The notes: generated by a model not told the origin, from the letters alone. A stretch of 64,000 nt of DNA from an uncultured Gammaproteobacteria bacterium (GCA_964566225.1 CAZMHV010000001.1:85963-149962); one strand, 5' to 3'. Shown: positions 2,470-43,300, counted from the stretch's first letter. Translations and numbers: made by a program.

Positions 2470-2497
2470 AAACCCCTTTGAAAAGAAGGGGTTTTTC
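2470..2497 (+). terminator. Rho-independent terminator after dnaE
   Basis: Perfect inverted repeat aaacccctt / aaggggttt followed by a T-run, immediately 3' of the dnaE stop. Confidence 0.6.
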
Positions 2498-2499
2498 TA

Positions 2500-2528
2500 T
2501 TGACTTTTTTATAAAATTGTGCTATACT
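2500..2528 (+). promoter_or_regulatory. Sigma70-like promoter TTGACT-17-TATACT driving the high-GC ATPase gene
   Basis: TTGACT at 2500-2505, a 17-nt spacer, then TATACT at 2523-2528. It lies about 40 nt upstream of the ATG at 2571, which has a GGGGGGA Shine-Dalgarno. Confidence 0.5.
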
Positions 2529-2570
2529 CTCGACAATTTATCCACGGACGTCCACACAAGGGGGGACCGA

Positions 2571-3170
2571 ATGAGTATTCCTGTGGTTGCTTTCACGGGC
2601 GCGCCTTGCGGAGGCAAGAGCATGGCCGTAGAGGCGATTCGGCAGCAGTTTGCCGGCAAGGTCGTAGTGGTGCCAGAAATGGCCTCCACCATCCTCGCAG
2701 GCTTTCCGCTGCCTGGTCGGGACCTCGAGTGGTCCTCGGAGTGGCAAGATTGCCTTCAAAGGACCATCCTGCGTGCGCAGCTCGAAGCTGAGGAGGCATG
2801 GCGCGCTGCAGCCATTCACCAGAATGCCAAGATCATTCTGTGTGATCGGGGAGTTCTCGATGGGGCAGCCTATCGGGGTGTGAGTGCTCAGCAGTTCTGC
2901 GTTGAATTCGGCATTGATCTCAACGAGGTGCATGCCCGCTACACGGGGGTTTTGCACCTCCAGTCGCTGGCTGAATTTTCGCCCGAACTCTATACCGCGA
3001 ACATGGCCTCGAACCCTCACCGGTTTGAGAGTGCTGCTCGCGCTCAGGAGCTCGATCGGGCGCTTCTGTTGGCCTGGAGGGGCCATTCGAATCACGAGTT
3101 CATTCCGGCAGATGCCAGTATTGGACGAAAGCTCGACCAAGTCGTCGAATTCGTCCAGCATCTCATCTGA
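2571..3170 (+). CDS. P-loop NTPase, AAA_28-like putative kinase/ATPase, in a high-GC cassette
   Basis: Walker A motif AFTGAPCGGKS at the N-terminus. Codons are GC3-rich, unlike the flanks. The longer ORF from 2478 would run through the promoter and AT-rich DNA, so the ATG at 2571 with its SD is preferred. Confidence 0.6.
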   Translation: MSIPVVAFTGAPCGGKSMAVEAIRQQFAGKVVVVPEMASTILAGFPLPGRDLEWSSEWQDCLQRTILRAQLEAEEAWRAAAIHQNAKIILCDRGVLDGAAYRGVSAQQFCVEFGIDLNEVHARYTGVLHLQSLAEFSPELYTANMASNPHRFESAARAQELDRALLLAWRGHSNHEFIPADASIGRKLDQVVEFVQHLI

Positions 3171-3276: not shown

Positions 3277-4347
3277 CTATTCACCCAGCTCCCACTGCGG
3301 ATCCGCTTTCACATCCTTCCAAGAAATAAATTCTTTTTTTACGGCCTTATAATATCCAGCAATCGCAATCATGGTCGCATTATCCATGGAGTACTTTGAT
3401 TCTGGAATCAAAAATTTGGTACCAGGAAATTGCTCGTCCACTGCCTGCTGCAACGTCTCACGCAATTTTTTGTTGGCACTCACACCACCACCCAGCACAA
3501 TAGTTTTGGGTTTGTATTCTGCTGCCGCGCGCATAGTTTTAATTACCAGCACATCAATAATTGCTTGTTCAAATGATGCACAAAAATCATTGATGGTAGG
3601 GGACTGTGGCGTCACTCCAAATACTCCTGCAGGCAAATTCAAAGCATTGGTATTCACTGCACTCAACTGATTATCTCGCAGCCAATACAAAGCAGCAGTT
3701 TTGAGTCCAGAAAAACTAAAGTCATAGTGAGCGTCCTTCATCATCGGTCGTGGAAATTGAATCGCACTGGTTTTTCCTTCCATTGCAAACTTTGAAATTT
3801 TTGGTCCACCTGGATAATCAAACCCAAGAAGTTTCGCAGCTTTATCAAAACATTCACCAGCGGCATCATCTACCGTCTTACCAATTTTTTCATATTCCCC
3901 CTGACTTTTCATGACAATCAATTCTGTATGTCCACCTGAAACAATGAGTCCCAAAGCAGGGAATTCAATTTTTGCATTGTTACTATTCAGCTCAACCGAA
4001 TGTATATGCCCCTCAATATGGTTGACGCCCACCATGGGCACATCCCACAAATACGATAATGTTTTGGCTGCATCCACGCCAACGAGCAGCGCAGTCATGA
4101 GCCCTGGCCCACTCGTCACTGCAATCACATCAGGCTTCTCTTGTCCAGCCATCACTTCTTCAACGAGAGGCACAATAAACTCTGCATGCGCGCGAGCCGC
4201 CACTTCTGGCACCACACCACCATATTTTTTGTGAATTTCAATTTGGCTCGCAGTTTTTTCGGCAAGCACAACAAAGCCCACTTCAGAGGCTTCAAGAAGA
4301 GAAACTGATGTGTCGTCGCACGATGATTCAATGCCGAGTATTTTCAT
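3277..4347 (-). CDS. tsaD: tRNA N6-adenosine threonylcarbamoyltransferase TsaD (Kae1/Gcp family)
   Basis: 356 aa with the MKILGIESSCDDTSV N-terminus and the two His metal site (HIEGH). Full-length ASKHA-fold match. Confidence 0.9.
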   Translation of the reverse strand: MKILGIESSCDDTSVSLLEASEVGFVVLAEKTASQIEIHKKYGGVVPEVAARAHAEFIVPLVEEVMAGQEKPDVIAVTSGPGLMTALLVGVDAAKTLSYLWDVPMVGVNHIEGHIHSVELNSNNAKIEFPALGLIVSGGHTELIVMKSQGEYEKIGKTVDDAAGECFDKAAKLLGFDYPGGPKISKFAMEGKTSAIQFPRPMMKDAHYDFSFSGLKTAALYWLRDNQLSAVNTNALNLPAGVFGVTPQSPTINDFCASFEQAIIDVLVIKTMRAAAEYKPKTIVLGGGVSANKKLRETLQQAVDEQFPGTKFLIPESKYSMDNATMIAIAGYYKAVKKEFISWKDVKADPQWELGE

Positions 4348-4900: not shown

Positions 4901-6241
4901 TCATCGCATCCTGGGCTCCACCTCCAGAACGTATACCCCGAGACGCTCCTTCTCGGGAGGGTAGATCGTCGTCAGGACTTCGAGCACCTGCGCTTTGACT
5001 TGGCCAGGCACGATTTTGCCCGCGTCTTCCACCTCGAGCATCGACTCGAAGCTGTCATACCGGCGAATCGCACGGACGGTGATGATCCCCGAGGCATCAT
5101 TCGTCTCGAGTTGGATACGTTCACCCGCCCGGATGCTCCGGATGTTGTCGTAGCCGACTCGTACTTCGAGTGTCTTCCTTCCCGACATGATGTCGAGGTA
5201 GAAGCGCCGTTTGACTCGCATCGTTCTTGGCATGATGTCCTCCAGGTAGTAGCCCCATTGCTGGGTGCTGTAGTCTTCGTGGTAGGCCGCGGGCATCATC
5301 GCATCGAGGGACCATCCCCTGCGTTGCAGGACGATAGTTTCCGCGACCGTTGGGACGAGGTGTGTGTAGAGTTTTCTCCCGTACGGCCTCAGATAGTTCG
5401 GCAAGTCAGTGAGCATCGCCGCAAAAGCGTCGGGGTCACTGGCCACACAGGGCATGAGCTTGATGGGCTGCCCCTTTTTGGGAGTAGCCCCTGCCACACC
5501 ACGCACAGTGTTGGTGAGGTCAACAGCGACGAAGATCAGTTTGAACTTGAGGTTCACTTCTCCTGTGCTGCGACGCCTATATCCTTCAAAGAGGGCATCC
5601 ACCCACTGTCGATCGACTCCGCGGAAGTAGTTTGGAAACGTCCCGTCGAGGATCAGCCGATAGACTCCATCGCGGTGGTGCTCTTCGAATGGCAGTACCG
5701 AAATGCTTCGGTTATCCGGCATTTCCTCATCCACTTCTGTTGTGGAGAGGGTTTTGTAGAGCATCATCTCTGTCACTCCGGGTTTGTAGTGACTCTGAGA
5801 TCGCCCTGCGGGGATGTATCCTTTCTTTCTGAAGAAGGAAATTGCCGAATGGTTCTGTTCTGCCACGGTACAGTAGATTTGCCTTGCTCCACGCTCTCTC
5901 GCGTACTGTTCGGCATGTGCCGTCAGTTCACTTCCACAGCCGTTCTGGGCTTGGAATGCGGGAGCGATGATGAGTGGGCTGATTTTCCAGGTGCCCTGTC
6001 GTTTTCGGACGATGTGAATCATCCCGATTTGGGTCGTACCGTCCACGAGGATGAACATCCTCTGCTCGGCAGAGAAGTGTCCTACGTGATCTTTACCTCC
6101 ACAGATGTGCGTCTCGAAGATCCGAGCCGCATGCGCACGGTGGTCGCCATCGTAGTACGGGGCCAGGGCGTTATCCATGAGGTCTGAGACGAACTGGAAG
6201 TCTGTCTCTTGAGCTTCGCGAATTTTTCGTCCTTCTGACAT
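4901..6241 (-). CDS. Three-domain protein: N-terminal GNAT acetyltransferase, central unknown domain, C-terminal ASCH domain (high-GC cassette)
   Basis: The N-terminal ~165 aa carry the GNAT acetyl-CoA motif (QAQNGCGSEL, then ARERGARQIYCTV). The C-terminal ~110 aa carry the ASCH motif SGRKTLEVR and a YqfB-like end (GVYVLEVEP). GC3 is strongly elevated. The mirror ORF on the plus strand (4847..6187) is a compositional shadow. Confidence 0.7.
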   Translation of the reverse strand: MSEGRKIREAQETDFQFVSDLMDNALAPYYDGDHRAHAARIFETHICGGKDHVGHFSAEQRMFILVDGTTQIGMIHIVRKRQGTWKISPLIIAPAFQAQNGCGSELTAHAEQYARERGARQIYCTVAEQNHSAISFFRKKGYIPAGRSQSHYKPGVTEMMLYKTLSTTEVDEEMPDNRSISVLPFEEHHRDGVYRLILDGTFPNYFRGVDRQWVDALFEGYRRRSTGEVNLKFKLIFVAVDLTNTVRGVAGATPKKGQPIKLMPCVASDPDAFAAMLTDLPNYLRPYGRKLYTHLVPTVAETIVLQRRGWSLDAMMPAAYHEDYSTQQWGYYLEDIMPRTMRVKRRFYLDIMSGRKTLEVRVGYDNIRSIRAGERIQLETNDASGIITVRAIRRYDSFESMLEVEDAGKIVPGQVKAQVLEVLTTIYPPEKERLGVYVLEVEPRMR

Positions 6242-7961: not shown

Positions 7962-8672
7962 TCAGATGGCGAGGCCGACCATCACCACCGGTGCCGCGAT
8001 TTCCGAGATGACGGCCGCCGTTGCAGCACCAACACCCACGGCCACAGCGATGTTGTAGATGTTGTCTCTCACCCATCGCACGGACGGAGGCTCACACATG
8101 CAGAGGCTGAAAGGTATCACACTCTCGTACACACCGAAGCAGAGTCGTCCGTTCTGTCTGTACTTCATGAAGTGGATGTCGAACACCTGGCGGAAGTTTC
8201 CAGCACGGTTGCTCCCGTAGTTGAGTCGGATCGCGTAGTAGTCCGCGGTCCGAGTACACACGGGGAAGTCGTGCCTTCCTCCCGAGGATGTCAGCCTGTA
8301 TTGCCCGACGGCGACGTCGAGGGGGGACTTCACTTCCGTATACGACAGCGGCTCTGTGGACGTTTCTTCTCTGAAGAGGTTGTCCAGCTCGGTGCTGATG
8401 TTCGGGCCGAAGCTGTACACGATGGTGTAGCCGTTGTTCGAAGCCCAATCGGTCAGACTGGGCAGGTAGGACTTGAAGTCCTCCAGCGTGTTGAACTCGA
8501 TCTTGTCCGGGAGCGTCGCCCTGAACTCACCGTTGGTGTCGGTGTCCACCTCGATGAGGTAGGTCTGCTCCGCCGTGCTGGAGGAGTCGTCGTGGGTGCT
8601 GGCCGAGGAGGGGTTGATCCGCTGCTCACAACCGAGCAAGCACAGAATCGCAAACAACAGTTTGAATTTCAT
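7962..8672 (-). CDS. Lipoprotein of unknown function (high-GC cassette)
   Basis: N-terminus MKFKLLFAILCLLGC has a lipobox LLGC. It is followed by a Ser/Thr/Asp-rich linker and a C-terminal Gly/Ala/Val-rich hydrophobic tail. GC3 is strongly elevated, and the antisense ORFs 8172..8756 and 8092..8448 are shadows. Confidence 0.55.
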   Translation of the reverse strand: MKFKLLFAILCLLGCEQRINPSSASTHDDSSSTAEQTYLIEVDTDTNGEFRATLPDKIEFNTLEDFKSYLPSLTDWASNNGYTIVYSFGPNISTELDNLFREETSTEPLSYTEVKSPLDVAVGQYRLTSSGGRHDFPVCTRTADYYAIRLNYGSNRAGNFRQVFDIHFMKYRQNGRLCFGVYESVIPFSLCMCEPPSVRWVRDNIYNIAVAVGVGAATAAVISEIAAPVVMVGLAI

Positions 8673-8844
8673 GGTTGGACTCTCTCTGTGGGTTGGGGTA
8701 CCTGTTGGAGTACTCAATTTGCGGGGTATTCGATAGATTTTCCTTTCGTTGAATAATTTTGAATGGCCAATGGACACAACATGTGTCCATGAGCACAATG
8801 TCTATAAATAATCATATCATAAGTTTAGATTTTTACAAAAATAA

Positions 8845-12723: not shown

Positions 12724-13818
12724 TTGCGAAATCCGCGTCCCATTCAAGTGATGCGTGTTTTTTCTGAACCTGACAAGCCCCTGGAGATTCAGTTCTCCGA
12801 CGTCTTGCCGGGAACCAAGTTCGAGAGCTGGCAGTGGATGGTGTTCACTGGTCAGCTCGGTGTGGCTCGTGAAGTGGGGGACAACGGTCAACCCGTTACG
12901 TTCTTCGCTGTCAAGACCTATGATCTCGATGTGGTGCGCAATGGCAAGCGCATGTACTTCAAGTTTCATGCTCCCAAGGGCATCGAGGACCTGCCGCCCC
13001 TCTTTGTGGAGGCTCATGCGGACACGCGTGTGGTCTCTGACGTCGATGGTCCGAAGGAGGTCACGTCGTTCACACACTGCCTCTGTGCGAGTGTGTGGCT
13101 GCTTTCTTCTTCGGCCAGTGTGGTCGTCTCCGAGAATCGTCTCCGGCAGCGTGCCCACGAAGCTCGGGTCGTCACCGAGCATGCACAGGCAGTCCAGGCG
13201 ATGCGTGATCGTGTAGGCACGCTCACTCCAATGCAGCTGGCTCCCTACATGCAGCTGTGGGGTCAGTTCAAAGGCAAAAAGACCTCGGATTCTGCCAAGC
13301 AGCAGATCGTGCGTCAGGCCATTGGTGCCTGGGCACGGGCTCAGGGTATGCATGAAACCGAGAGTCTGCTCGAGGCAGTCGGTGACCAGCTCTCTGATCT
13401 CGTGAAGGGCCTCACGGATTACTACCAGGAGTACATCTCCGTCGACACGAACGGGCAGAACAAGGATACTCTCACCAAGCTGCTGCGTGCACATCTGCGG
13501 CCGCTTCTCGAAGATCTGCATCATCCGCTGCAAGATCACCATGTCGATGGCATTGTGTCTTGTCTCGTCTCCAACGGTCGGTTCCCTCGCCGGTTTCGCC
13601 GTATGGTGGGTGACGAGATGCACTCGGTGATGGTGGCGGTGAATCGGGCGATGAAACGGGAGTTGGTCTCTGCTGCACCTGCAGCACAATCAACTGCGCC
13701 CGAGGAGAAAGCAACTCCTCCTCGGCCTGTCGCCGCACGCAGGGGAGGGGGCATTCGTCTCAATCCGAAGAGACTCCCTGGTCTCAGGCGGGACACAGCA
13801 CCTCCCCAAGGCGGCTGA
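12724..13818 (+). CDS. Hypothetical protein, 364 aa (high-GC cassette inside the polysaccharide cluster)
   Basis: TTG start with a strong SD (GGAGGAG, 5 nt upstream). Codons are GC3-rich and the composition is balanced. The antisense ORF 12688..13689 is His/Arg-rich and looks like a shadow. No recognisable domain. Confidence 0.55.
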   Translation: MRNPRPIQVMRVFSEPDKPLEIQFSDVLPGTKFESWQWMVFTGQLGVAREVGDNGQPVTFFAVKTYDLDVVRNGKRMYFKFHAPKGIEDLPPLFVEAHADTRVVSDVDGPKEVTSFTHCLCASVWLLSSSASVVVSENRLRQRAHEARVVTEHAQAVQAMRDRVGTLTPMQLAPYMQLWGQFKGKKTSDSAKQQIVRQAIGAWARAQGMHETESLLEAVGDQLSDLVKGLTDYYQEYISVDTNGQNKDTLTKLLRAHLRPLLEDLHHPLQDHHVDGIVSCLVSNGRFPRRFRRMVGDEMHSVMVAVNRAMKRELVSAAPAAQSTAPEEKATPPRPVAARRGGGIRLNPKRLPGLRRDTAPPQGG

Positions 13819-18411: not shown

Positions 18412-18439
18412 TTGACAAAATATGGGTGAAGAATATACT
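18412..18439 (+). promoter_or_regulatory. Sigma70-like promoter TTGACA-16-TATACT driving the PadR-like gene
   Basis: TTGACA at 18412-18417 and TATACT at 18434-18439, followed by an AGGGGAAAG SD and the ATG at 18475. Confidence 0.5.
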
Positions 18440-18474
18440 TGTTCTACTTTCAAACCAAGGCAGGGGAAAGTTTG

Positions 18475-18783
18475 ATGAGTATCGAGGTGGGGACACTGAT
18501 CCTCTGTGCTCTCACTTCTGGAGAGCGCACGCTTGCTGATTTGATGGAGATTCTTCTGAAGCTGAGTCGTGGCATGCAGGCGTTTTCACCTGCGGCGATC
18601 AATATTCAGCTTCTAGAGTGGAAGAACGCCGGCTTCATCGAGTATGAGGCCAGAAATCCGCTCACCGGGTCCATAGCCAAGCTGAAACCTGAGGGAAGGC
18701 ACTACCTGCTCAAGTCACCCGAGATGGTGTTCGTGCGTACTGCACTGAACCGCCTCGCCGAGGAGAATCAAGGCGAGACCTAG
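18475..18783 (+). CDS. Small winged-helix transcriptional regulator, PadR-like (high-GC cassette between def and fmt)
   Basis: 102 aa. GERTLADLMEIL...SRG...SPAAINIQLLEWKNAGFIEYE fits the PadR pattern (recognition helix followed by a wing and the L-x-x-L-E-x-x-G-x-I motif). GC3 is elevated. Confidence 0.45.
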   Translation: MSIEVGTLILCALTSGERTLADLMEILLKLSRGMQAFSPAAINIQLLEWKNAGFIEYEARNPLTGSIAKLKPEGRHYLLKSPEMVFVRTALNRLAEENQGET

Positions 18784-24567: not shown

Positions 24568-25239
24568 ATGGCTGGAACTCTCTCTATTGTCGCCACTCCC
24601 ATTGGGAATTTGGGTGACATAACACTGCGCGCACTTGAAACACTGAAAAGTGTTGATTTTATTTTGTGTGAAGATACTCGCAATACCCAAAAGCTTCTCA
24701 ATCATTTTGATATCAAAACTCCAACCCTGAGTTATCACCAGCATAGTGATTTTAAACGAATACAAGAAATTGAAGCACTCCTTGAAGAAGGAAAAAATTT
24801 GGCACTGGTGACGGACGCAGGCACACCAGGAATATCAGACCCAGGAAATTTATTAATTGAAGAACTTACAAAAAATCAAAAACAAGTAAATATTGTCTCT
24901 GTCCCAGGTGCTTCTGCGGTAGTGGCCGCACTATCTCTGTCTGGGTTTGCAACCGACAAATTTCTTTTTCTTGGGTTTCCTCCTCACAAAAATAAAAGAC
25001 AAAAATTTTTTCAAACCGTGGCACAGAGTGAGTACACGGTAGCTTTTTATGAATCCAATCATCGTATTGCCAAAGCCTTACAAAGTTTGTCTGAACTTTT
25101 GTCAGAAGATCGGCAAGTATGTGTCTGCCGAGAAATTACCAAAGCTTTTGAAAGTACCTACCGTGGAACCATGTCACAAATTTTAGCCATGAAAATTCCC
25201 GAAAAAGGAGAATTTGTGGTACTGGTAAAAGGAAAATAA
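24568..25239 (+). CDS. rsmI: 16S rRNA (cytidine1402-2'-O)-methyltransferase
   Basis: GTLSIVATPIGNLGDITLRALETLKSVDFILCEDTR, the tetrapyrrole-methylase-fold RsmI signature. Start chosen at MAGTL. Confidence 0.85.
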   Translation: MAGTLSIVATPIGNLGDITLRALETLKSVDFILCEDTRNTQKLLNHFDIKTPTLSYHQHSDFKRIQEIEALLEEGKNLALVTDAGTPGISDPGNLLIEELTKNQKQVNIVSVPGASAVVAALSLSGFATDKFLFLGFPPHKNKRQKFFQTVAQSEYTVAFYESNHRIAKALQSLSELLSEDRQVCVCREITKAFESTYRGTMSQILAMKIPEKGEFVVLVKGK

Positions 25240-25249
25240 GTTGTACAGA

Positions 25250-25353
25250 GGACTAAGAATATTTTATTTTTTCAATTTTGATCACCACCCGCGGCGCGGG
25301 CGGTGGTCGAAGACCCCGTTTCAAAAATTGAAAAAATAAAATATTCTTAGTCC
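25250..25353. repeat. Palindromic repeat element, copy A: 31-bp perfect AT-rich inverted arms around a 42-bp GC-rich core
   Basis: Arms ggactaagaatattttattttttcaattttg / caaaaattgaaaaaataaaatattcttagtcc. Core atcaccacccgcggcgcgggcggtggtcgaagaccccgtttc. The core and inner arms recur in reverse orientation at 29391..29501. Confidence 0.8.
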
Positions 25354-25386
25354 GTTGACTTAAAAATAATTTACAGTAAAAATACA

Positions 25387-26901
25387 TTGCAATCTCACAA
25401 AAAACATATGCTCAGTGACTACACAAAATACAGACTCTTTGAAATCTTTCCCGGTTTCACGGTCTGGCTCACCCTCCTTGGCGCGATTGCTTTGTCATTT
25501 TTGAAACCACTCTGGATGATTTATTTTGTTATTATTTTTGATATCTACTGGGTTCTCAAAGCCGTCAATTATTCTTTTTATCTGGTGCTTTCTTGGTTTC
25601 GTTTTAAATTGGTACGCAGTGAAAATTGGAAGCACCGTATACAAAGTGAAGAAGTCGGTAAAAATTTAAAACACATTATTTTTATTACTTTGTACAACGA
25701 ACCTTGGGAAGTAGCTGAACCAAGTATTGCCGCTATGGCAGATGCAGTGTATGACAAAGAAAAATTTGTGGTGGTGATTGCAGGTGAAGCTCGCAAAGAA
25801 GATAATTTCCACGATGTATACAATAGAGCTCACCAAAAATTTGGTGATAAGTTTCATGCTATTTTAGGCACACTGCATCCGGCAACACTGGAGGGAGAAA
25901 TTCCAGGCAAAGCATCAAACCTCCATTTTTCTGAAAAAGAAGTGAATGAATATATTGAGCAGCAAGGTTGGGATAAAACAGAAGTCATTGCTACTATTTT
26001 TGATACCGATGCTATTTGTCACGAACAGTATTTTGCATATTTGGCATACGTATATTCACATCATCCAAATCCAACCAAAAGTTCGTATCAACCAATTCCA
26101 TTTTACAACAACAATTTGTGGGAGTCTGGTCCTATACTTCGTATCATGTCTTTTGGTACCAGTTTTTGGAAAATGGTCTCACTCTCTCGTCAAGATTCAC
26201 TTCATACTTTCTCGTCATATTCAATTAGTTGGCAGGCCCTTTGTGATATTGGATTTCACGACAAAACCGTGATTGGTGAAGATGCTCGTTTGTTTTATCA
26301 ATGTCAACTCAGGTACGATGGCAACTATCAAGTAACCCCATTGTATTTGCCAGTGTTCATGGACACGGTGCGTGACGATAAATGGTGGAAGAGTCTCACC
26401 AATCTGTACGTACAGCAACGTCGCTGGGCCTATGGCGTTGAGCAAATTCCTTTTTTGCTCTGGAATTTTTACAAAAAAAATACCAAAATGAGTTTTTGGA
26501 AAAAACTCAAATGGGGATTCAATGAGTGGGAGAGTAAGTGGTCCTGGTGTTGTTCTGTACTTCTCATTACTATTTTGGGTCGTTTGCCACTGTGGCTGGC
26601 ACCTGAATCTATTCGTGAGACCACATTGTTTTTCAATGCGCCACATGTACTGCAGGTACTCATGAATATTGCCATGTCTGCACTCTTTTTGTCTGTGACA
26701 TTTAGTTTACTGCTCATGCCAGTGAAACCCAAAAGTTACCCAAATTATTATTATATATTTGTTGTATTGCAGTGGCTGCTTATGCCTATTTCACTCGTGT
26801 TCATGGGAGCCTTTCCAGCGATTGATGCGGTGACACGGCTTATGCTTGGTAGATACTTGGGATATAAAGTCGCTCAAAAAAGTAGAGTTACTATTACCTA
26901 A
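25387..26901 (+). CDS. Membrane-integrated processive glycosyltransferase family 2 (cellulose/hyaluronan-synthase-like)
   Basis: N-terminal TM helices, a cytoplasmic GT-A domain, a QQRRW (Q-x-x-R-W) motif, then further TM helices. 504 aa. Confidence 0.6.
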   Translation: MQSHKKHMLSDYTKYRLFEIFPGFTVWLTLLGAIALSFLKPLWMIYFVIIFDIYWVLKAVNYSFYLVLSWFRFKLVRSENWKHRIQSEEVGKNLKHIIFITLYNEPWEVAEPSIAAMADAVYDKEKFVVVIAGEARKEDNFHDVYNRAHQKFGDKFHAILGTLHPATLEGEIPGKASNLHFSEKEVNEYIEQQGWDKTEVIATIFDTDAICHEQYFAYLAYVYSHHPNPTKSSYQPIPFYNNNLWESGPILRIMSFGTSFWKMVSLSRQDSLHTFSSYSISWQALCDIGFHDKTVIGEDARLFYQCQLRYDGNYQVTPLYLPVFMDTVRDDKWWKSLTNLYVQQRRWAYGVEQIPFLLWNFYKKNTKMSFWKKLKWGFNEWESKWSWCCSVLLITILGRLPLWLAPESIRETTLFFNAPHVLQVLMNIAMSALFLSVTFSLLLMPVKPKSYPNYYYIFVVLQWLLMPISLVFMGAFPAIDAVTRLMLGRYLGYKVAQKSRVTIT

Positions 26902-26907
26902 TTTACT

Positions 26908-28353
26908 ATGTTTCGTAAACCTTGGGTGTATATTGCGTTGTGTTTTGTCATCATTATCATTGGCATTGTTGTGTTTGTTCGCCAAACCACACCCAAACAA
27001 ATTTTCAACTTACCTCTGGTCAAAGAAACTTTGGTCAAAAAAACAGGTCCGACGAAAAAAGCTTTGGTAGATTTGCTTCCAACTTTTTTGGGATTTGAAA
27101 AACCCAAAACATATTTGGTATTGTTTGAAAATAATACAGAACTTCGTCCAGGTGGCGGATTTATTGGGACGTATGCTTTGGTGAATGTTGATAACGGAAG
27201 TATTCATCCGCTTGTTGTTGAAGGCACTGAGTCACTCGATAATAGAGTCAAAGATCAAGTCACCGCAATACCTCCAAAAATTATTCAAGAAAAACTTGGC
27301 TTGGGGAAGTGGTATTTTCGTGATAGTAATTGGTCACCAGATTTTGTAGAAAGTTCCAAAAAGGCTTTGGAATTTTATGCTGCCGAAAATGGTCAGTCAG
27401 CCCAAGATATTGATGCGGTGATAGCACTGACTCCTACGGTTCTTGAAGAACTTCTCAAAATAACTGGCCCTATTACGGTGCAAGGGGTTGAATTTAACGC
27501 AAAAAATGTAGTGAATAGACTTGAGTATGAAGTAGAATTTGGTTTTGAACACAAAGGTATTGATTTTGCCAATAGAAAGCAAATTATAGAACCATTTTTT
27601 CATGCAGTGCTCAAAAAAGTTGCACCGGATGCCTTGCTTCATACGAGCAAGTATATGGATTTGTTTGACACTTTGGCCAAACAAAAACAGATTTTGGTAT
27701 ATTTCAAAGATACTGGTATCCAAAAAACCATGCAGGAATATGGATGGACAGGGGATGTCAAAGCAGTAGATGGAGATTTTGTGATGTGGGTAGATGCGAA
27801 CCTGGGTGCACTCAAAACAGATCAGGTGATGCAAAGAAATTTACAGTATATGGTTCAACCCGTTGATGAAAAAAATTCTGAATTTGTGGCTCATGCCAAA
27901 ATGCAATATATGCATACTGGTGTTTATGATAAATTTACCAGTCGTTATCGTACCTATGCTCGTGTTTATGTACCACTCGGAAGTGTGCTCAAGGAAGTAA
28001 ATACTGTTCAAAATAATGGTCAAAAAACTCGTTTGACTACTATTGATCAAGGATTTGAAGTAGGCAAACAATGGTATGGTGTATTTATTACCATTGAACC
28101 AAAAGAAAATAAAGAACTGGAATTTGTGTATACACTCCCACCACGGGTGACGAGTCAAATACATGGCCGTACGTATACACTTTTGGTTCAAAAACAAGCA
28201 GGGCTTACTGACGCCCGATTGACGCTTAGGTTGAATTTTGGTACTAATATTACGTCAGCTAGTCCAGCAGAAGAACAAAAAGAGTGGGGGAATGCTGTTT
28301 ATAATAAAGCTATGAATTTTGACACTGATCAGAAGTTTGAAGTGAAAATGTAA
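26908..28353 (+). CDS. DUF4012-like protein (N-terminal TM anchor, conserved LRPGGGFIGTY motif)
   Basis: The ELRPGGGFIGTYALV motif shortly after a single N-terminal TM helix is characteristic of DUF4012. 481 aa. Confidence 0.5.
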   Translation: MFRKPWVYIALCFVIIIIGIVVFVRQTTPKQIFNLPLVKETLVKKTGPTKKALVDLLPTFLGFEKPKTYLVLFENNTELRPGGGFIGTYALVNVDNGSIHPLVVEGTESLDNRVKDQVTAIPPKIIQEKLGLGKWYFRDSNWSPDFVESSKKALEFYAAENGQSAQDIDAVIALTPTVLEELLKITGPITVQGVEFNAKNVVNRLEYEVEFGFEHKGIDFANRKQIIEPFFHAVLKKVAPDALLHTSKYMDLFDTLAKQKQILVYFKDTGIQKTMQEYGWTGDVKAVDGDFVMWVDANLGALKTDQVMQRNLQYMVQPVDEKNSEFVAHAKMQYMHTGVYDKFTSRYRTYARVYVPLGSVLKEVNTVQNNGQKTRLTTIDQGFEVGKQWYGVFITIEPKENKELEFVYTLPPRVTSQIHGRTYTLLVQKQAGLTDARLTLRLNFGTNITSASPAEEQKEWGNAVYNKAMNFDTDQKFEVKM

Positions 28354-28357
28354 TGAA

Positions 28358-29374
28358 TTGCAGCGTATGTTTATTAAAAAGGTCGCCATTGACCTCGGTA
28401 CAACCAATGTTCTCGTGTATGTTCCCAAAAGGGGTATTGTCATCAACGAACCATCAGTCGTTGCTATCTCCAAAGAAGATGGTAAGGTTTTGGCCGTTGG
28501 TATTGAAGCCAAAGAAATGATTGGGCGTACCCCAGACACTATCGTTGCAGAGCGCCCACTCAAAGATGGTGTGATTGCTAACTATCGTACCACCGAAGCC
28601 ATGCTTCGTTATTTTATCAACAAAGCCTTGGGGGGCATGAGACTGTTTCGTCCAGAAGTAATGATTGCTGTGCCTGCTGGTATTACTTCTACTGAACGCC
28701 GTGCTGTAATTGATGCTGCTATGGCTGCAGGGGCTCGTGCTGCGTATATTATCAAAGAACCAGTCGTTTCTGCTATTGGTGCAGATATTCCAATTGGGAG
28801 TGCCTCTGGCCACATGATTATTGATATTGGTGGTGGCACTGCCGAAATTGCCGTTATTTCTCTCGGAGGTATTGTGTCATGGGGCTCGGTGCGTATTGGT
28901 GGCACACGATTTGATGTTTCTATTGCTGAGTATATTCGTCGTAAATATGGGCTTGCTATTGGAGACAGATCAAGTGAAGAAGTAAAAATTCGAGTTGGTT
29001 CTGCTATGTATATGGATGAACCACTTGCCATGGATGTCAAGGGACGTGATGTGATTACTGGGCTTCCGAGGACCGTAACGATTACTTCCGATGATACCAC
29101 CGAAGCACTGCAACATGATTTAGAAGGATTGGTAGAAGCCATCAAAGAAGTCTTGCACAAAACTCCACCAGAGTTGTCGGCTGATGTGATGGACAAAGGT
29201 ATTATTATGGCTGGTGGCAGTAGTCAGCTTCGCAATTTGGATGAACTTATTGCGCATGCTACTGGAGTTGCTTGTTATGTGGCCGATGAACCACTTTTGT
29301 GTGTTGCCAAAGGAACTGGTATTGCGCTTGAAAATTTGGAAAACTATAAGCGCAGTATTATGTCGACACGTTAG
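28358..29374 (+). CDS. mreB: Rod shape-determining protein MreB
   Basis: Actin-fold motifs IDLGTTNVLVYV, DIGGGTAEIAV and MAGGSSQLRNLDELI. The true start may be at MFIKK (28367). Confidence 0.9.
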   Translation: MQRMFIKKVAIDLGTTNVLVYVPKRGIVINEPSVVAISKEDGKVLAVGIEAKEMIGRTPDTIVAERPLKDGVIANYRTTEAMLRYFINKALGGMRLFRPEVMIAVPAGITSTERRAVIDAAMAAGARAAYIIKEPVVSAIGADIPIGSASGHMIIDIGGGTAEIAVISLGGIVSWGSVRIGGTRFDVSIAEYIRRKYGLAIGDRSSEEVKIRVGSAMYMDEPLAMDVKGRDVITGLPRTVTITSDDTTEALQHDLEGLVEAIKEVLHKTPPELSADVMDKGIIMAGGSSQLRNLDELIAHATGVACYVADEPLLCVAKGTGIALENLENYKRSIMSTR

Positions 29375-29390
29375 AGGATCTGATCTCGTA

Positions 29391-29501
29391 CTTGACGACG
29401 CAGTAAGTTTATTTTTTCAATTTTGAAACGGGGTCTTCGACCGCCGCCCGCGCCGCGGGTGGTGATCAAAATTGAAAAAATAAACTTACTGCGTCGTCAA
29501 G
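29391..29501. repeat. Palindromic repeat element, copy B: 35-bp perfect inverted arms with the same GC-rich core as copy A, in reverse orientation
   Basis: Arms cttgacgacgcagtaagtttattttttcaattttg and its perfect reverse complement. Core aaacggggtcttcgaccgccgcccgcgccgcgggtggtgat, which is the reverse complement of the copy A core with a single mismatch. Confidence 0.8.
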
Positions 29502-29515
29502 TCTAAAATTTTAAT

Positions 29516-30106
29516 ATGATTTCTCTCTCTGCACAAAGTATTCTTCATACCAAAACTGGTGATTGGAAAATTCTCGTCTATACAGAAGAAAAAAAGTTAG
29601 AACATGTGGCTCTTATAAAAGGTGTGGTAGAGCCTGGGAGTACCCCACTCGTGCGTGTTCATTCAGAATGTTTGACTGGTGACACACTGGGTTCACTGCA
29701 CTGTGATTGTGGTGAGCAAAAAGAAGCTGCACTTCAAAGAATTGCCACAGAAGGGAGTGGTATTTTTTTGTATATGCGCCAAGAAGGTAGAGGAATTGGT
29801 CTTGCCAGTAAAATTCAGGCATATGAGTTGCAGCGAGTAGAAGGACTCGATACCGTAGAAGCGAATTTGAAACTCGGGCGTGAGGCAGACGAACGGTGTT
29901 ATTTGCCGGCGTCTTTGATGCTCCAAGATTTAGGAATTACCTCTGTGCGATTACTGACCAATAATCCTGATAAAAAAGTTGGGCTTGAACAACATGGTAT
30001 GATGGTGACTGAACTTGTGCCCACTGAAGTATTTCCAAATGAAATAAACAAAAAATATTTGGAGACCAAGAAAAATAAGATGGGACATATTTTGAAGAAT
30101 GTGTAA
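29516..30106 (+). CDS. ribA: GTP cyclohydrolase II
   Basis: Zinc site CLTGDTLGSLHCDCG and the catalytic region YMRQEGRGIGL. Confidence 0.85.
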   Translation: MISLSAQSILHTKTGDWKILVYTEEKKLEHVALIKGVVEPGSTPLVRVHSECLTGDTLGSLHCDCGEQKEAALQRIATEGSGIFLYMRQEGRGIGLASKIQAYELQRVEGLDTVEANLKLGREADERCYLPASLMLQDLGITSVRLLTNNPDKKVGLEQHGMMVTELVPTEVFPNEINKKYLETKKNKMGHILKNV

Positions 30107-30140: not shown

Positions 30141-32468
30141 ATGCCAGAAGGTTTTCACCGCGAAGGCCAACCCATGGATGTTACTTTTTCAAGTTCTTTT
30201 TCTGATAATCGTGACGATAGTCCAAAGTCAGCTGAAACTTGGTTGAATCAAGAGAAAACTTTACATGAACAAGAGAATGTTGGTGGACCAGAAACAGGTT
30301 TAAATTTTGTAGATGAAGTGCGAGATGTTGTGGTACGAGGAGAAAAAAGAAAGATGCGACAACAAGGACTTTTTGATAGATTAAAAACGCATTCTCTCAT
30401 GCTTGCTTCTGCTCTCGGTATAAGTGCAGGATCTTTTGCTATGCTTGATTCAGAAACGAGAAATAGTGTCGTTGAAAAGGCTCAAGAACTTATGGCTGTG
30501 GCACAATTTGGGGATAAAGAACAGCAAGAACTTGCGGCACAAGCAAAGCAAGCACTTTCAAAAGATTTAAAAGATATGCAACGTGAAGGCAGTGATGAAC
30601 AATCAGAAGTTGAAAGAAGAAAACAGCTCATTGATGTACATATGAAAGTGTTGGAACTCAAAGGGGGTGTCTCACACGAAGAAACAACTCGAACAAAAGA
30701 ATACATCGAACGACTGGTAACAAAGTATCAGAAGATGAAGAGAGAAGGTTTTGGAAATCACCAAAATTACAAAGAAAAGATGTTTTCTGACCTTTTTGAA
30801 TTATCCAAAGAAACAGGACGTTATGAACCAGGCAAAGCAAGAATTTCTTCTATTGCCAATGATGGAGTAGGGAACTGTGAAGCAAAAGCATTGCTTCGTC
30901 GTCTCGTAGTACCATTTGTGTATCCCGAAAGTGAACTCAAATTTCAGCATTTTGGGCCAGGAGAAAAGACTTCGCCAGATCAAGGTGCTACTGAGAATGC
31001 CGGTCATGTGCGTATGATTATGAGAATTGAAAAAAATTGGTACGCACTTGAAGATGGTGTACCACAAAAACTTGCTCCAAATGATTTGGTAGGAACACTT
31101 ATTACAGATATTGATGTATTTGAAAAATCACTGCTGGGTGAACATGTTGGTGGCAAGCCAGTAAAAAGTGAAGGAGCTGTGGCTCGGGAGTCGACCGCAA
31201 AGACCAATAGTTTATTTGATCTTCAATTTGACACTCCACCAACACGGTCTTTGCCCGGTGGTATTTCGCAAACCGAAACTCTGCAAGAATTTAACAAACG
31301 TCAAAGACTCGAATATACCGCTGCAGGTCAAACTCTGGATCCCGAGAATTTACCTCCGCTCAAAGTGTATATTGGTGAAACACTTGAAGATGTTTCTGCA
31401 CAAATGGGTGGTGGAGAAAAAAAAGAAGATATGCTAAAGCCAGAAGATCCACATGAACTTCCTGAAGACAGGAAGATGAGGGCAATGATTGATGGTGTGT
31501 TGGATTTATCTGGGAAGAACGTATTTTATGATCTTTCTGCTTTGCATGGGGTTGAACTGAAAGCAATATATGGAGGTTATTTCGGAATACGTGGAAAAGT
31601 CGCTGACAAGTATGCACAAGAATTTACAGCACATTTTTCAAAGGTTCCAGAAATCAGTCTGAGTGTAATAGATAAAAGTAGTCAATCCGTAGCTGATGCT
31701 TTCGAAACACTAAAAGATTTAAGTGTGACTCGTCTCGACGGAACAAAAACAGATCTCAATTTTTTGAGGGGCAAAGATACTCTCAAAAGATTTTCTTTGA
31801 TTGGAACAAATGGTACGGTTGATCTTGAACCTCTTGGTGGACATCAGTTAGAAAGTTTGAGATTATCAAATCATGTAACGAAAGAAGGTTTCAAAAATTT
31901 GATTGCCGTTGATACGAGTATGCTTAAGGCTGTATCAATAGATACAATTTTAGTGAATCAAGAAATTGAAAAGTTTATTGCAGGAATATCAGGTGCCAGG
32001 GAATTTCAGCTCAATTTTGAAACTCAAGAAGGTAAAAATTTTAAAATTTTTGATTCTGTAAATGAGTTAAAAACAAAAAATCTTGAAAGATTTACTCTCA
32101 CCATGCTTGAGCGTCCAATTCAAGGGGAATTTACTTTTGATTTGACAAAAATTTCATCGCAACCACTCACAAATTTGGAACTTTGGGGTATTTCGGCAGA
32201 GCGCCTTGAAGCCCTTGAAGGTATGCCATTAGAAAATTTGACTCTAGAAATAAATTGTGAAACCACGGACATCTCTCCACTCAAAAAGCTTCCAAAATTA
32301 CAAAATTTGGAGATTATTTGTAATGGAGAAATTTCTTCAGAGGTTGGGAATTTTGTTCAGTCGCTTCCTGTGAGAGAAAAAAGGGTGAGAAAAGTTGGTG
32401 ACGGTGTTGACGATGACCAAGATTATCTTACACAAAGGAAACTCGGTGTGAGGCCAGCGGGTGAATAA
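30141..32468 (+). CDS. Large hypothetical protein (775 aa) with a C-terminal internalin-type leucine-rich repeat region
   Basis: No signal peptide. The N-terminal ~200 aa are charged and predicted coiled-coil. The C-terminal ~250 aa contain LRR units such as LENLTLEINCETTDISPLKKLPKLQNLEI. Confidence 0.6.
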   Translation: MPEGFHREGQPMDVTFSSSFSDNRDDSPKSAETWLNQEKTLHEQENVGGPETGLNFVDEVRDVVVRGEKRKMRQQGLFDRLKTHSLMLASALGISAGSFAMLDSETRNSVVEKAQELMAVAQFGDKEQQELAAQAKQALSKDLKDMQREGSDEQSEVERRKQLIDVHMKVLELKGGVSHEETTRTKEYIERLVTKYQKMKREGFGNHQNYKEKMFSDLFELSKETGRYEPGKARISSIANDGVGNCEAKALLRRLVVPFVYPESELKFQHFGPGEKTSPDQGATENAGHVRMIMRIEKNWYALEDGVPQKLAPNDLVGTLITDIDVFEKSLLGEHVGGKPVKSEGAVARESTAKTNSLFDLQFDTPPTRSLPGGISQTETLQEFNKRQRLEYTAAGQTLDPENLPPLKVYIGETLEDVSAQMGGGEKKEDMLKPEDPHELPEDRKMRAMIDGVLDLSGKNVFYDLSALHGVELKAIYGGYFGIRGKVADKYAQEFTAHFSKVPEISLSVIDKSSQSVADAFETLKDLSVTRLDGTKTDLNFLRGKDTLKRFSLIGTNGTVDLEPLGGHQLESLRLSNHVTKEGFKNLIAVDTSMLKAVSIDTILVNQEIEKFIAGISGAREFQLNFETQEGKNFKIFDSVNELKTKNLERFTLTMLERPIQGEFTFDLTKISSQPLTNLELWGISAERLEALEGMPLENLTLEINCETTDISPLKKLPKLQNLEIICNGEISSEVGNFVQSLPVREKRVRKVGDGVDDDQDYLTQRKLGVRPAGE

Positions 32469-33694: not shown

Positions 33695-33943
33695 ATGTCA
33701 GTAGTTAATTTTGCGATCTCGAAACCTCTTGAGGTAAAAATCAATAAAGTTATCAAAAAAGAAGGCTTTGCTAGTAAAGCAGAATTTTTTCGGTTTGCTG
33801 CAATGAACTATATCAGTCGTTTTCGTGAAGACATTTCTCAAGAAGAATTTGAAGAGTCAGCCCGAGAATTTAAAAGTTCCATCGAAAAAGCTGTAGCTAA
33901 GAAAAAATTTCCATCACTCGAAGATCAACTGTCTGATTTATAA
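33695..33943 (+). CDS. Ribbon-helix-helix (CopG/ParD-like) antitoxin
   Basis: 82 aa. The beta-alpha-alpha pattern AISKPLEVKINKVIKKEGFASKAEFFRFAAMNYI is typical of RHH. It ends 5 nt before the downstream toxin gene. Confidence 0.55.
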   Translation: MSVVNFAISKPLEVKINKVIKKEGFASKAEFFRFAAMNYISRFREDISQEEFEESAREFKSSIEKAVAKKKFPSLEDQLSDL

Positions 33944-33948
33944 ATAGT

Positions 33949-34281
33949 ATGTACCAATTTGTTGTCCCTGAGTATTTTAGGAAACAAATAAAAAAGTACG
34001 TAAAAAAACATCGCTCACTTTTGGGTGATGTTATTTTTTGTCTAAAAAATTTTGATCCGGAGAGTCATACAAATTTAGGTGAAGACGTTTATAAAATTCG
34101 GCTCATGGTATCAGATATGAAAAAAGGGAAAAGAAACTCTTTTCGGCTCATCGTTGTTCTTGTTCGTCACAAAGATACATTAATCCCACTCACTCTCTAC
34201 TATAAAGGTGATCAAGATTCAATTTCTAAAAGAGAAATTCAAGAACATTTTAAATTTGTCATGAGGGAACTTTTATTTTAG
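33949..34281 (+). CDS. RelE/ParE-superfamily toxin (HigB/YafQ-like)
   Basis: 110 aa. The C-terminal half YKIRL...GKRNSFRLIVVLVRHKDTLIPLTLYYKG matches the RelE/ParE beta-sheet core. Immediately follows the RHH gene. Confidence 0.5.
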   Translation: MYQFVVPEYFRKQIKKYVKKHRSLLGDVIFCLKNFDPESHTNLGEDVYKIRLMVSDMKKGKRNSFRLIVVLVRHKDTLIPLTLYYKGDQDSISKREIQEHFKFVMRELLF

Positions 34282-43169: not shown

Positions 43170-43186
43170 TTCGAGAAATTATCTGA

Positions 43187-43300
43187 AGTTCAAATTTGAG
43201 ATATGAGTTCTGGCGAACATCGCGAAGGCGCCGTTCGACAGGGCTAATATCTCAAAGTTGAACGCCAGTGCCAAAGTGCACACCAATCGGCGTTCAACAA
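43187..43300. repeat. Two adjacent palindromic structures in the atpB-atpE spacer
   Basis: Arms gttcaaatttgagatat / atatctcaaagttgaac enclose a GC-rich core (ggcgaacatcgcgaaggcgccgttcgac). A second 10-bp perfect inverted repeat, gttgaacgcc...ggcgttcaac, follows immediately. Confidence 0.5.

Follow-up and report, generated by a model that had tools for sequence, protein, structure and literature searches.

A small palindromic repeat at two junctions of a conserved cell envelope operon in a member of Candidatus Magasanikbacteria

Two related palindromes between operon genes

The DNA analyzed here, referred to throughout as the window, is a 64,000-nucleotide stretch (GCA_964566225.1, CAZMHV010000001.1:85963-149962) deposited under the name of an uncultured gammaproteobacterium, which its MreB homologues place within Candidatus Magasanikbacteria of the Candidate Phyla Radiation (CPR). 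Its subject of interest is a pair of palindromic elements, copies A and B, both lying between co-directional genes of a conserved cell envelope operon: A at the junction between an rsmI-like gene and a glycosyltransferase (GT)-like gene (site A) and B at the junction between mreB and ribA (site B). Upstream of the rsmI-like gene is a gene for a PBP-like peptidase on the minus strand. An earlier note, made from the sequence of the window, had described the two copies as inverted elements resembling MITEs (miniature inverted-repeat transposable elements) or REP sequences that flank a 4-kb block of envelope genes. The features of the locus are as follows.

24568-25239, plus strand: rsmI-like gene for a 16S rRNA methyltransferase (TP_methylase), the upstream neighbor of copy A
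25250-25353: copy A, a palindromic element of 104 bp with its core in the plus orientation
25250-25279 and 25324-25353: arms of copy A, perfect over 30 bp (100% complementary)
25280-25323: center of copy A, 44 nt, asymmetric and GC rich
25263-25335, plus strand: conserved inner unit of copy A, made up of 19-nt AT-rich inner arms (TTTATTTTTTCAATTTTGA) and the core (GATCACCACCCGCGGCGCGGGCGGTGGTCGAAGACCCCGTTTC)
25355-25383, plus strand: weak sigma-70-like match, TTGACT-17-AAAAAT (9/12)
25408-26901, plus strand: GT-like membrane protein of 497 amino acids, the first gene 3' of copy A, with a probable ATG start at 25408
26908-28353, plus strand: DUF4012 protein
28367-29374, plus strand: mreB (335 amino acids), the upstream neighbor of copy B
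29390-29502: copy B, a palindromic element of 113 bp with its core in the minus orientation
29390-29426 and 29466-29502: arms of copy B, perfect over 37 bp (100% complementary)
29427-29465: center of copy B, 39 nt
29516-30106, plus strand: ribA (GTP cyclohydrolase II), the downstream neighbor of copy B

The inner unit of copy A and the reverse complement of copy B at 29412-29484 are 95% identical over 73 nt, with one mismatch in the GC-rich core, so that B is the reverse complement of A and the opposite orientation of two near-identical palindromes was read correctly in the earlier note. A 36-nt version of the core, CACCACCCGCGGCGCGGGCGG(T/C)GGTCGAAGACCCCG, has two matches and no more in the window, one perfect and one with a single mismatch, and none in 100 shuffled sequences; the 19-nt inner arm is present, window-wide, solely at the four arm positions. 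A chance origin of the similarity between A and B is excluded. The copies are indeed near-perfect palindromes, but their perfect arms measure 30 and 37 bp instead of the 31 to 35 bp first given, and although the limits of copy A were exact, those of copy B (29391-29501) have to be moved to 29390-29502. The average GC content of the window is about 40%, not the roughly 38% that had been attributed to the genome. The first gene of the enclosed block had been called a GT2 synthase; the 504-amino-acid product has no Pfam match in the window, and its orthologues have only a weak match to Glyco_trans_2_3.

Neither copy contains an open reading frame (ORF). On either strand, each copy folds into one long hairpin; the predicted free energies lie between -56 and -75 kcal/mol, and the z scores relative to dinucleotide-shuffled sequences lie between -11 and -14. 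Every one of the 67 arm pairs in the window (30 in A and 37 in B) is a Watson-Crick pair, and there are no G-T pairs.

Strong hairpins just past stop codons might be intrinsic terminators of the ordinary kind, perhaps working in both directions, that arose where they now stand, an explanation that we regard as very improbable. No T-run follows either copy on either strand (the sequences 3' of the hairpins are GTTGACTT and CTAAAATT), the terminator scan called neither copy, an independent origin in place leaves 95% identity over 73 nt unexplained, and the operon is so tightly packed that orthologous junctions measure 1 to 26 nt and contain no hairpin. The earlier preference for a MITE- or REP-like element over a simple terminator thus agrees with the missing T-run, the terminator scan, and the empty junctions of related genomes. 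The promoter-like sequence just 3' of A, whose -35 hexamer, TTGACT, is formed by the right end of a 106-nt insertion described below, did not rise above chance for the region in the promoter scan.

Filled and empty junctions in related genomes

Loci of relatives were retrieved through homologues of MreB, RibA, RsmI, and the GT-like protein and are cited by L numbers where they have to be told apart. The order and orientation of rsmI, the GT-like gene, the DUF4012 gene, mreB, and ribA are kept in every relative, element-free ones included, and six more distant relatives with this gene order have junctions of just 1 to 26 nt. Junction lengths were as follows.

Window: site A (rsmI to GT-like), 168 nt; site B (mreB to ribA), 141 nt
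L009: site A, 9 nt; site B, 1 nt
L012: site A, 2 nt; site B, 21 nt
L017: site A, 6 nt; site B, 1 nt
L018 and L019: site A, outside the contig; site B, 1 nt
L024: site A, 12 nt; site B, outside the contig
L016: site A, contig begins in the spacer; site B, 26 nt

In relatives without the element the spacer is 2 to 12 nt at site A and 1 to 26 nt at site B, and because these orthologous junctions compare with 168 and 141 nt in the window, A and B are lineage-specific insertions into tight operon junctions. The presence/absence polymorphism at orthologous sites that is a feature of MITEs is observed at both. Site A has the element in the window and L022 and is empty in L020/L021, L009, L012, L017, and L024; site B is filled in the window, in L014/L015 (both from one sample), and in L005 and empty in L009, L012, and L016 to L019. 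The site B carriers L014/L015 and L005 have mreB genes with 93 to 94% nucleotide identity to that of the window. Carriage at the two sites is uncoupled: L020, which comes from the same sample as L014/L015, has together with them B only, and L016/L022 have A only.

These distributions bear on the proposal that the GT-like, DUF4012, and MreB genes are carried by a composite mobile block, or by an invertible segment, whose limits are the inverted copies. Two 73-nt inverted repeats 4.1 kb apart are in principle substrates for homologous inversion, but the gene order and orientation are the same in all relatives, even those lacking both elements, from which it follows that the enclosed 4-kb block is ancestral and was not imported; nor does the independent carriage of A and B suit a composite. 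The standard junction is present in independent assemblies of the same strain (L007 and L008), the inverted configuration is absent from all junction-spanning assemblies (L007, L014, and L020), the window contains no recombinase, and inversion would turn three operon genes antisense to their promoter. Mobilization or inversion of the block is therefore extremely improbable, and neither of these suggestions of the earlier note is supported.

Site A offers the closest comparison of a filled with an empty junction. L020/L021, with 96% nucleotide identity to the window in the GT gene, lack a 106-nt segment, 25255-25360, which in the window is accompanied by GACT repeats at 25251-25254 and 25357-25360; minus exactly this segment, the window is colinear with L020 through AGAGGACT followed by TAAAAA(A)TAATTT. 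L022 represents a more distant lineage (GT gene 80% identical) in which site A is filled: its contig begins inside the core, reading GGGCGGCGGTCGAAGACCCCGTTTCAAAAATGAAAAAAAGAAATAATCTGAAAGCCGACGAT followed by TTAAAAATAA, and the element occupies the same position relative to the TTAAAAATAA flank. This truncated copy matched a covariance model built from three copies with an E value of 7e-07. L016, from a sister lineage of L022, begins at site A in arm-like, A-rich sequence. The left arm of the L022-lineage copy was not recovered via rsmI homologues, the contigs so obtained, L023 and L024, being from other lineages.

Two histories of site A are about equally probable. A single insertion may have taken place in the ancestor of the clades of the window and L016/L022 and been lost later in L020, in which case the GACT repeats at the hairpin base could have allowed a slipped-strand deletion; the same position of the element in L022 argues for this course, as does a right flank that is common to the window, L020, L022, and L016 and absent from outgroups. 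Alternatively, there may have been independent site-specific insertions with a 3- to 4-bp duplication, for which the clean, GACT-bounded polymorphism, the similar right flanks at A and B, (T/C)TAAAA(A)T, and the ATT/ATT flanks of B in L014/L015 can be cited. Under either history the element is, or was, duplicative DNA.

L023 (Logan SRR22388034) ends 49 nt past the rsmI stop codon (3706-3754), in GC-rich sequence, GTCATTGCGAGCGAAGCGAAGCAATCCC. This suggests a different repeat at the same junction of rsmI and the GT-like gene, which may be an insertion hotspot.

Both arms of copy B are present in the independent short-read assemblies L006, L007, and L008, and the metagenome contig L005 covers one complete copy of the element; the palindrome is therefore not an assembly artifact. 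The L006, L007, and L008 contigs stop about 30 nt into an arm, as expected of k=31 graphs at perfect palindromes, and among the Logan contigs (k=31), ends about 30 nt inside perfect arms occur in L006, L007, L008, L014, L015, and L016. The end of the L022 contig is of a different kind: it lies in the middle of the core, exactly at the point where the window and L005 differ in their hairpin tips, which hints at more than one copy or a strain variant in that sample. Perfect arms that split k=31 short-read assemblies within the element help to explain contig ends in metagenome-assembled genomes of the group.

A conserved center and arms that change together

Comparison of the copies shows a center that is conserved and distal arms that are not. 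The center, about 80 nt made up of the 19-nt AT-rich inner arms and an asymmetric GC-rich core of about 40 nt, is constrained. A, B, L005, and L022 have in common an unchanged 18-mer, GGTCGAAGACCCCGTTTC; the visible half of the L022 core (about 25 positions) has one difference from A, at the T/C position that separates A from B; and the inner arms differ by a few changes across lineages. In L022 the arm has diverged to roughly 70 to 75% while the core half is near-identical. The core holds a small hairpin that is preserved by compensated change, CCCGC-GGC-GCGGG in the window versus CCCTC-CGCA-GAGGG in L005, both sides having changed and the hairpin having been kept.

The distal arms read GGACTAAGAATAT in A, TGACGACGCAGTAAG in B, GGACGAATACTCT and TGACGAAGAG... 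in L005, and GGCTTTCAGATTAT in L022 (the complement of the visible arm), where the diverged right arm is ATCGTCGGCTTTCAGATTATTTC... The outer arms, though fast diverging, are recognizably related in all four (A, B, L005, and L022), and the likeness between A and L005 continues 5 nt past the palindrome (TCAACGGAC...GAATA), a diverged form being present in L022. Because of this relatedness, including the 5 nt past the palindrome, and their absence from L020, the outer arms are best taken as diverged distal parts of one ancestral long arm. The two arms of a copy nevertheless change together. In L014/L015 the left arm is TTTATTTTTTTT and the right arm is AAAAAAAATAAA, whereas in the window both runs are 2 bases shorter (TTTATTTTTT and AAAAAATAAA); relative to the window, these contigs have 2 extra T residues in the left arm and 2 extra A residues in the right arm, and 31 of the 32 visible positions of their arms are complementary.

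The earlier note had suggested that the outer arms were copied from the target sites or belonged to local palindromes; in a model of this kind only the inner unit of about 80 nt is mobile, the outer arms being made locally through insertion into existing hairpins or through fold-back copying of flanks. The outer arms of A and B are strongly different, and each is perfectly self-complementary; the right arm of B in the window and L014/L015 could have been copied from the left one, the right arm of L005 being different there; and palindromes are known to be lengthened by template switching between inverted-repeat arms, a process that is also documented to homogenize the arms and invert the spacer (PMC8604942). 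Against a local origin, the closely related empty site A in L020 is devoid of the outer-arm sequence AAGAATAT...ATATTCTT, the tight junctions of relatives hold no hairpin, and the A-type arm, including the 5 nt past the palindrome, recurs in L005 and, diverged, in L022, which argues that the outer arms travel or descend with the element. Arms of local origin are accordingly quite unlikely, and the same observations do not support their derivation from the target sites.

We suggest that the distal arms are kept in Watson-Crick register by the copying of one arm from the other, through template switching during replication or gene conversion within the element; as all arm pairs are Watson-Crick pairs and none are G-T pairs, a mechanism at the DNA level fits better than selection at the RNA level. 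Template switching or conversion, or recombination between the arms, could in addition reverse the core. Cores in both orientations are found beside the A-type right arm and its flank, GTCCGTTGA (plus in window copy A and L022, minus in L005), which is consistent with core inversion. With arms that are symmetric, an orientation that is set by the core alone, and a core that can flip, the opposite core orientations of A and B are no sign of a composite element. Exchange between sites is suggested by the inner arms, which are identical in A and B of the window and differ among orthologues in other lineages, pointing to recent copying or gene conversion.

L005 requires separate mention. One arm of this site B copy is near the A-type arm of the window, and within positions 1 to 130 of the contig, CAAAGAGTA and AATACTCTTT(T)GTT stand in direct orientation on the two sides instead of being inverted. 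Such a pattern could be explained by a template switch or inversion within the site, by another copy having acted as donor in gene conversion, or by faulty assembly of the contig end.

The conservation of the center raises the question of whether the element is a selected functional module and not selfish DNA, either a cis-acting RNA processing or stability element, such as an RNase III site, which would uncouple upstream from downstream cistrons, or a DNA hairpin or cruciform bound by a specific protein. Conservation is much stronger in the core and inner arms than in the distal arms or the spacers around them, the 18-mer is invariant despite GT genes that are only 80% identical between the window and L022, the compensated change keeps the inner hairpin, and both copies lie within a transcribed operon and fold, whichever strand is taken, into highly stable hairpins. 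However, the core faces opposite ways relative to transcription at A and B, so that any sense-RNA function of this asymmetric sequence would differ between them; the arms consist solely of Watson-Crick pairs; no Rfam family matches; the core on its own folds no better than shuffled GC-rich sequence (z = -1 to -2.5); and in most relatives the operon does without the element. On balance we consider a functional module unlikely. A related reading, in which the center of about 80 nt on its rapidly but concertedly evolving, perfectly paired stem is a CPR-specific module for structure-based recognition or processing that is under selection, is in our judgment doubtful.

Copy number, known repeat families, and a reading of the element

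Further copies were sought in several collections. The covariance model found nothing more in the window or in 24 loci except the truncated L022 copy, and a further 130 kb or so of relatives' loci contained copies only at the orthologous sites. A 22-mer from the core (single N allowed) had four matches in 185,579 species genomes, all of them due to chance, being confined to the 22-mer itself and located in genomes of 61 to 73% GC. A different 22-mer had a single match in a metagenome collection, the orthologous contig L005, and two patterns had no match in viral contigs; nor did blastn of the 168-nt spacer against plasmids and phages yield any. In Rfam searches only one tRNA in the whole window passed at gathering scores, and at copy A, with an E-value threshold, there were only subthreshold matches to generic hairpins (microRNA precursors) and no family for the element. 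The outer arms, considered as guide- or spacer-like sequences, had no matches elsewhere in the window, and the literature searched held no description of a small palindromic repeat in reduced CPR genomes.

A long imperfect palindrome at 43183-43268 (41-nt arms, 78% complementary, 4-nt loop) lies in the 221-nt spacer between atpB and atpE. Its weak covariance-model match (43190-43261; E = 0.08) was rejected as a further copy, the hairpin being unrelated in sequence.

The same operon seems to have received other insertions. A 775-codon ORF at 30141-32468, between ribA and ribD, has only a faint match to LRR_4 and a counterpart of 782 amino acids in L015 and is absent from L009, L012, and L016 to L019, where ribA adjoins ribD; judged by these comparisons, it is another lineage-specific insertion. 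Between ribD and a NUDIX gene, which are adjacent in relatives, a RelE-like toxin ORF (33949-34281) and an 82-codon partner (33695-33943) probably constitute an inserted toxin-antitoxin pair (33695-34281). Elsewhere in the window, five single-gene islands of 53 to 59% GC (2478-3170, 4901-6241 on the minus strand, 7962-8798 on the minus strand, 12724-13818, and 18439-18783) sit among the housekeeping genes dnaE, tsaD, RNase Y, murJ-like, and fmt/def, whose background is about 39% GC. One of the five has a Pfam match (AAA_28). The ORF at 4901-6241 was judged by eye to encode a real protein, acetyltransferase-like with an ASCH-like end, its plus-strand partner being a shadow ORF, and that at 7962-8798 begins with a lipoprotein-like signal peptide; the islands look like horizontally acquired orphan genes.

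In its behavior the element appears closest to palindromic intergenic repeats of the Correia (CREE) and ERIC types, but membership in a named family cannot be shown: it has no sequence similarity to any of the named families compared, and no parent insertion sequence (IS) is known. Correia elements number in the tens to hundreds, their 26-bp terminal repeats are well conserved, they duplicate a TA target, and they contain an IHF site. The CREE/NEMIS elements of Neisseria are noncoding, intergenic, and cotranscribed, with about 100 to 150 bp, terminal inverted repeats, and a conserved core, and their transcripts fold into long hairpins, while promoter-like hexamers can arise at their ends (PMC2649163). 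The element described here shares with them a comparable size, inverted arms, a conserved core, a location within an operon, and a weak -35-like TTGACT at its right end, and Correia elements are the closest precedent for a candidate processing-site hairpin in a transcribed spacer; it differs from them in its count of only two in 64 kb, in termini that vary more than any other part, and in the absence of a TA duplication. ERIC (or IRU) sequences of enterobacteria are palindromes of about 127 bp that lie within operons, in intergenic DNA that is transcribed; their central inverted repeat is the best-conserved part, they are patchy at orthologous sites, and no transposase is known to be associated with them. 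Palindromic structure, intraoperonic location, a best-conserved center, and patchy occurrence are features of our element too, but there is no sequence similarity, its arms are perfect over 30 to 37 bp whereas those of ERIC are imperfect, and the hosts are unrelated (CPR).

Other families provide partial parallels. REPINs and REP/BIMEs are mobilized by REP-associated tyrosine transposases (RAYTs). In REPINs, two conserved REP sequences form the arms around a variable spacer, compensatory changes in the hairpin are common, and excision polymorphisms occur (PMC3116915). As with REPINs and REP/BIMEs, we are dealing with a hairpin-forming intergenic repeat that contains a small GC-rich palindrome with a compensated change, but the conservation is reversed (a conserved center and variable distal arms) and the copy number is apparently low; no RAYT/Y1_Tnp gene was found in the window. 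The terminal repeats of MITEs match those of the parent IS and are the conserved part of the element. Classical prokaryotic MITEs are small, noncoding deletion derivatives of IS elements with terminal inverted repeats (review, PMC10969869). Copies A and B, at 104 and 113 bp, resemble them in being noncoding, in their inverted arms, in their presence/absence polymorphism, and in a possible direct repeat of 3 to 4 bp at A; they depart from them in that no parent IS is known, the termini vary, and B is without a clear duplication. Within the window no terminal repeats shared with an autonomous IS were found, the inner arm being present solely in the four arms and no transposase domain being detected. 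Integron attC sites have conserved outer core sites, R'' and R' (RYYYAAC and GTTRRRY), a variable center, and promoterless cassettes with intI adjacent. An attC site was rejected as an explanation: conservation is central and not terminal, the genes on either side are conserved housekeeping genes whose order is fixed, and no integrase was found in the window.

We conclude, with a probability of roughly 0.6, that A and B are a small (about 105 to 115 bp), noncoding, low-copy palindromic repeat of the MITE/ERIC/Correia kind, which by its distribution seems confined to a narrow clade of Candidatus Magasanikbacteria and has entered two normally almost gap-free junctions, rsmI/GT-like and mreB/ribA, of a conserved co-directional operon. 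It may have spread by means of an enzyme supplied in trans and encoded outside the window or by copy-and-paste exchange between sites. As the elements lie inside an operon, they are predicted to be cotranscribed, which would yield an RNA duplex of 30 to 37 bp that is a candidate site for processing or a determinant of stability, presumably as a side effect of the intraoperonic position.

Several points weigh against this conclusion. The 64 kb contain only two copies, those at orthologous sites elsewhere number no more than a handful, and exact-pattern scans brought to light no family members past close relatives. No transposase, integrase, or Y1/HUH gene came to light when practically every window ORF of 80 codons or more was scanned against Pfam and NCBIfam. 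Copy B is without a clear target-site duplication, the flanks in the window being ACT and AGT with no direct repeat, and the GACT repeat at site A would fit a 4-bp target duplication and a hairpin-stimulated microhomology deletion in L020 equally well, so that active transposition is not demonstrated over a single old insertion with subsequent loss and gene conversion. The ends are the least conserved part of the element and the center is the most conserved, the reverse of the situation in classical MITEs. Finally, the arms of L005 are imperfect, with one segment of 9 to 14 nt direct and not inverted, so that either the homogenization of arms is not universal or L005 is partly misassembled.

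Small palindromic repeats are well known from proteobacteria, Neisseria, and pneumococci. Were the center to prove a selected, structure-recognized module after all, it may be the recognition hairpin of an undescribed HUH- or integrase-like enzyme that targets operon junctions beside T/TAAAA, or it may be a domesticated intraoperonic RNA-processing or insulator element under purifying selection. Read as a MITE/ERIC/Correia-like repeat, the case discards the more exciting but unsupported idea of a mobile or invertible MreB cell shape block and provides a compact and datable example of a hairpin repeat that enters tight operon junctions, stays perfectly palindromic, and can be lost; the combination of concerted arm evolution with a constrained center would be of modest interest to specialists.

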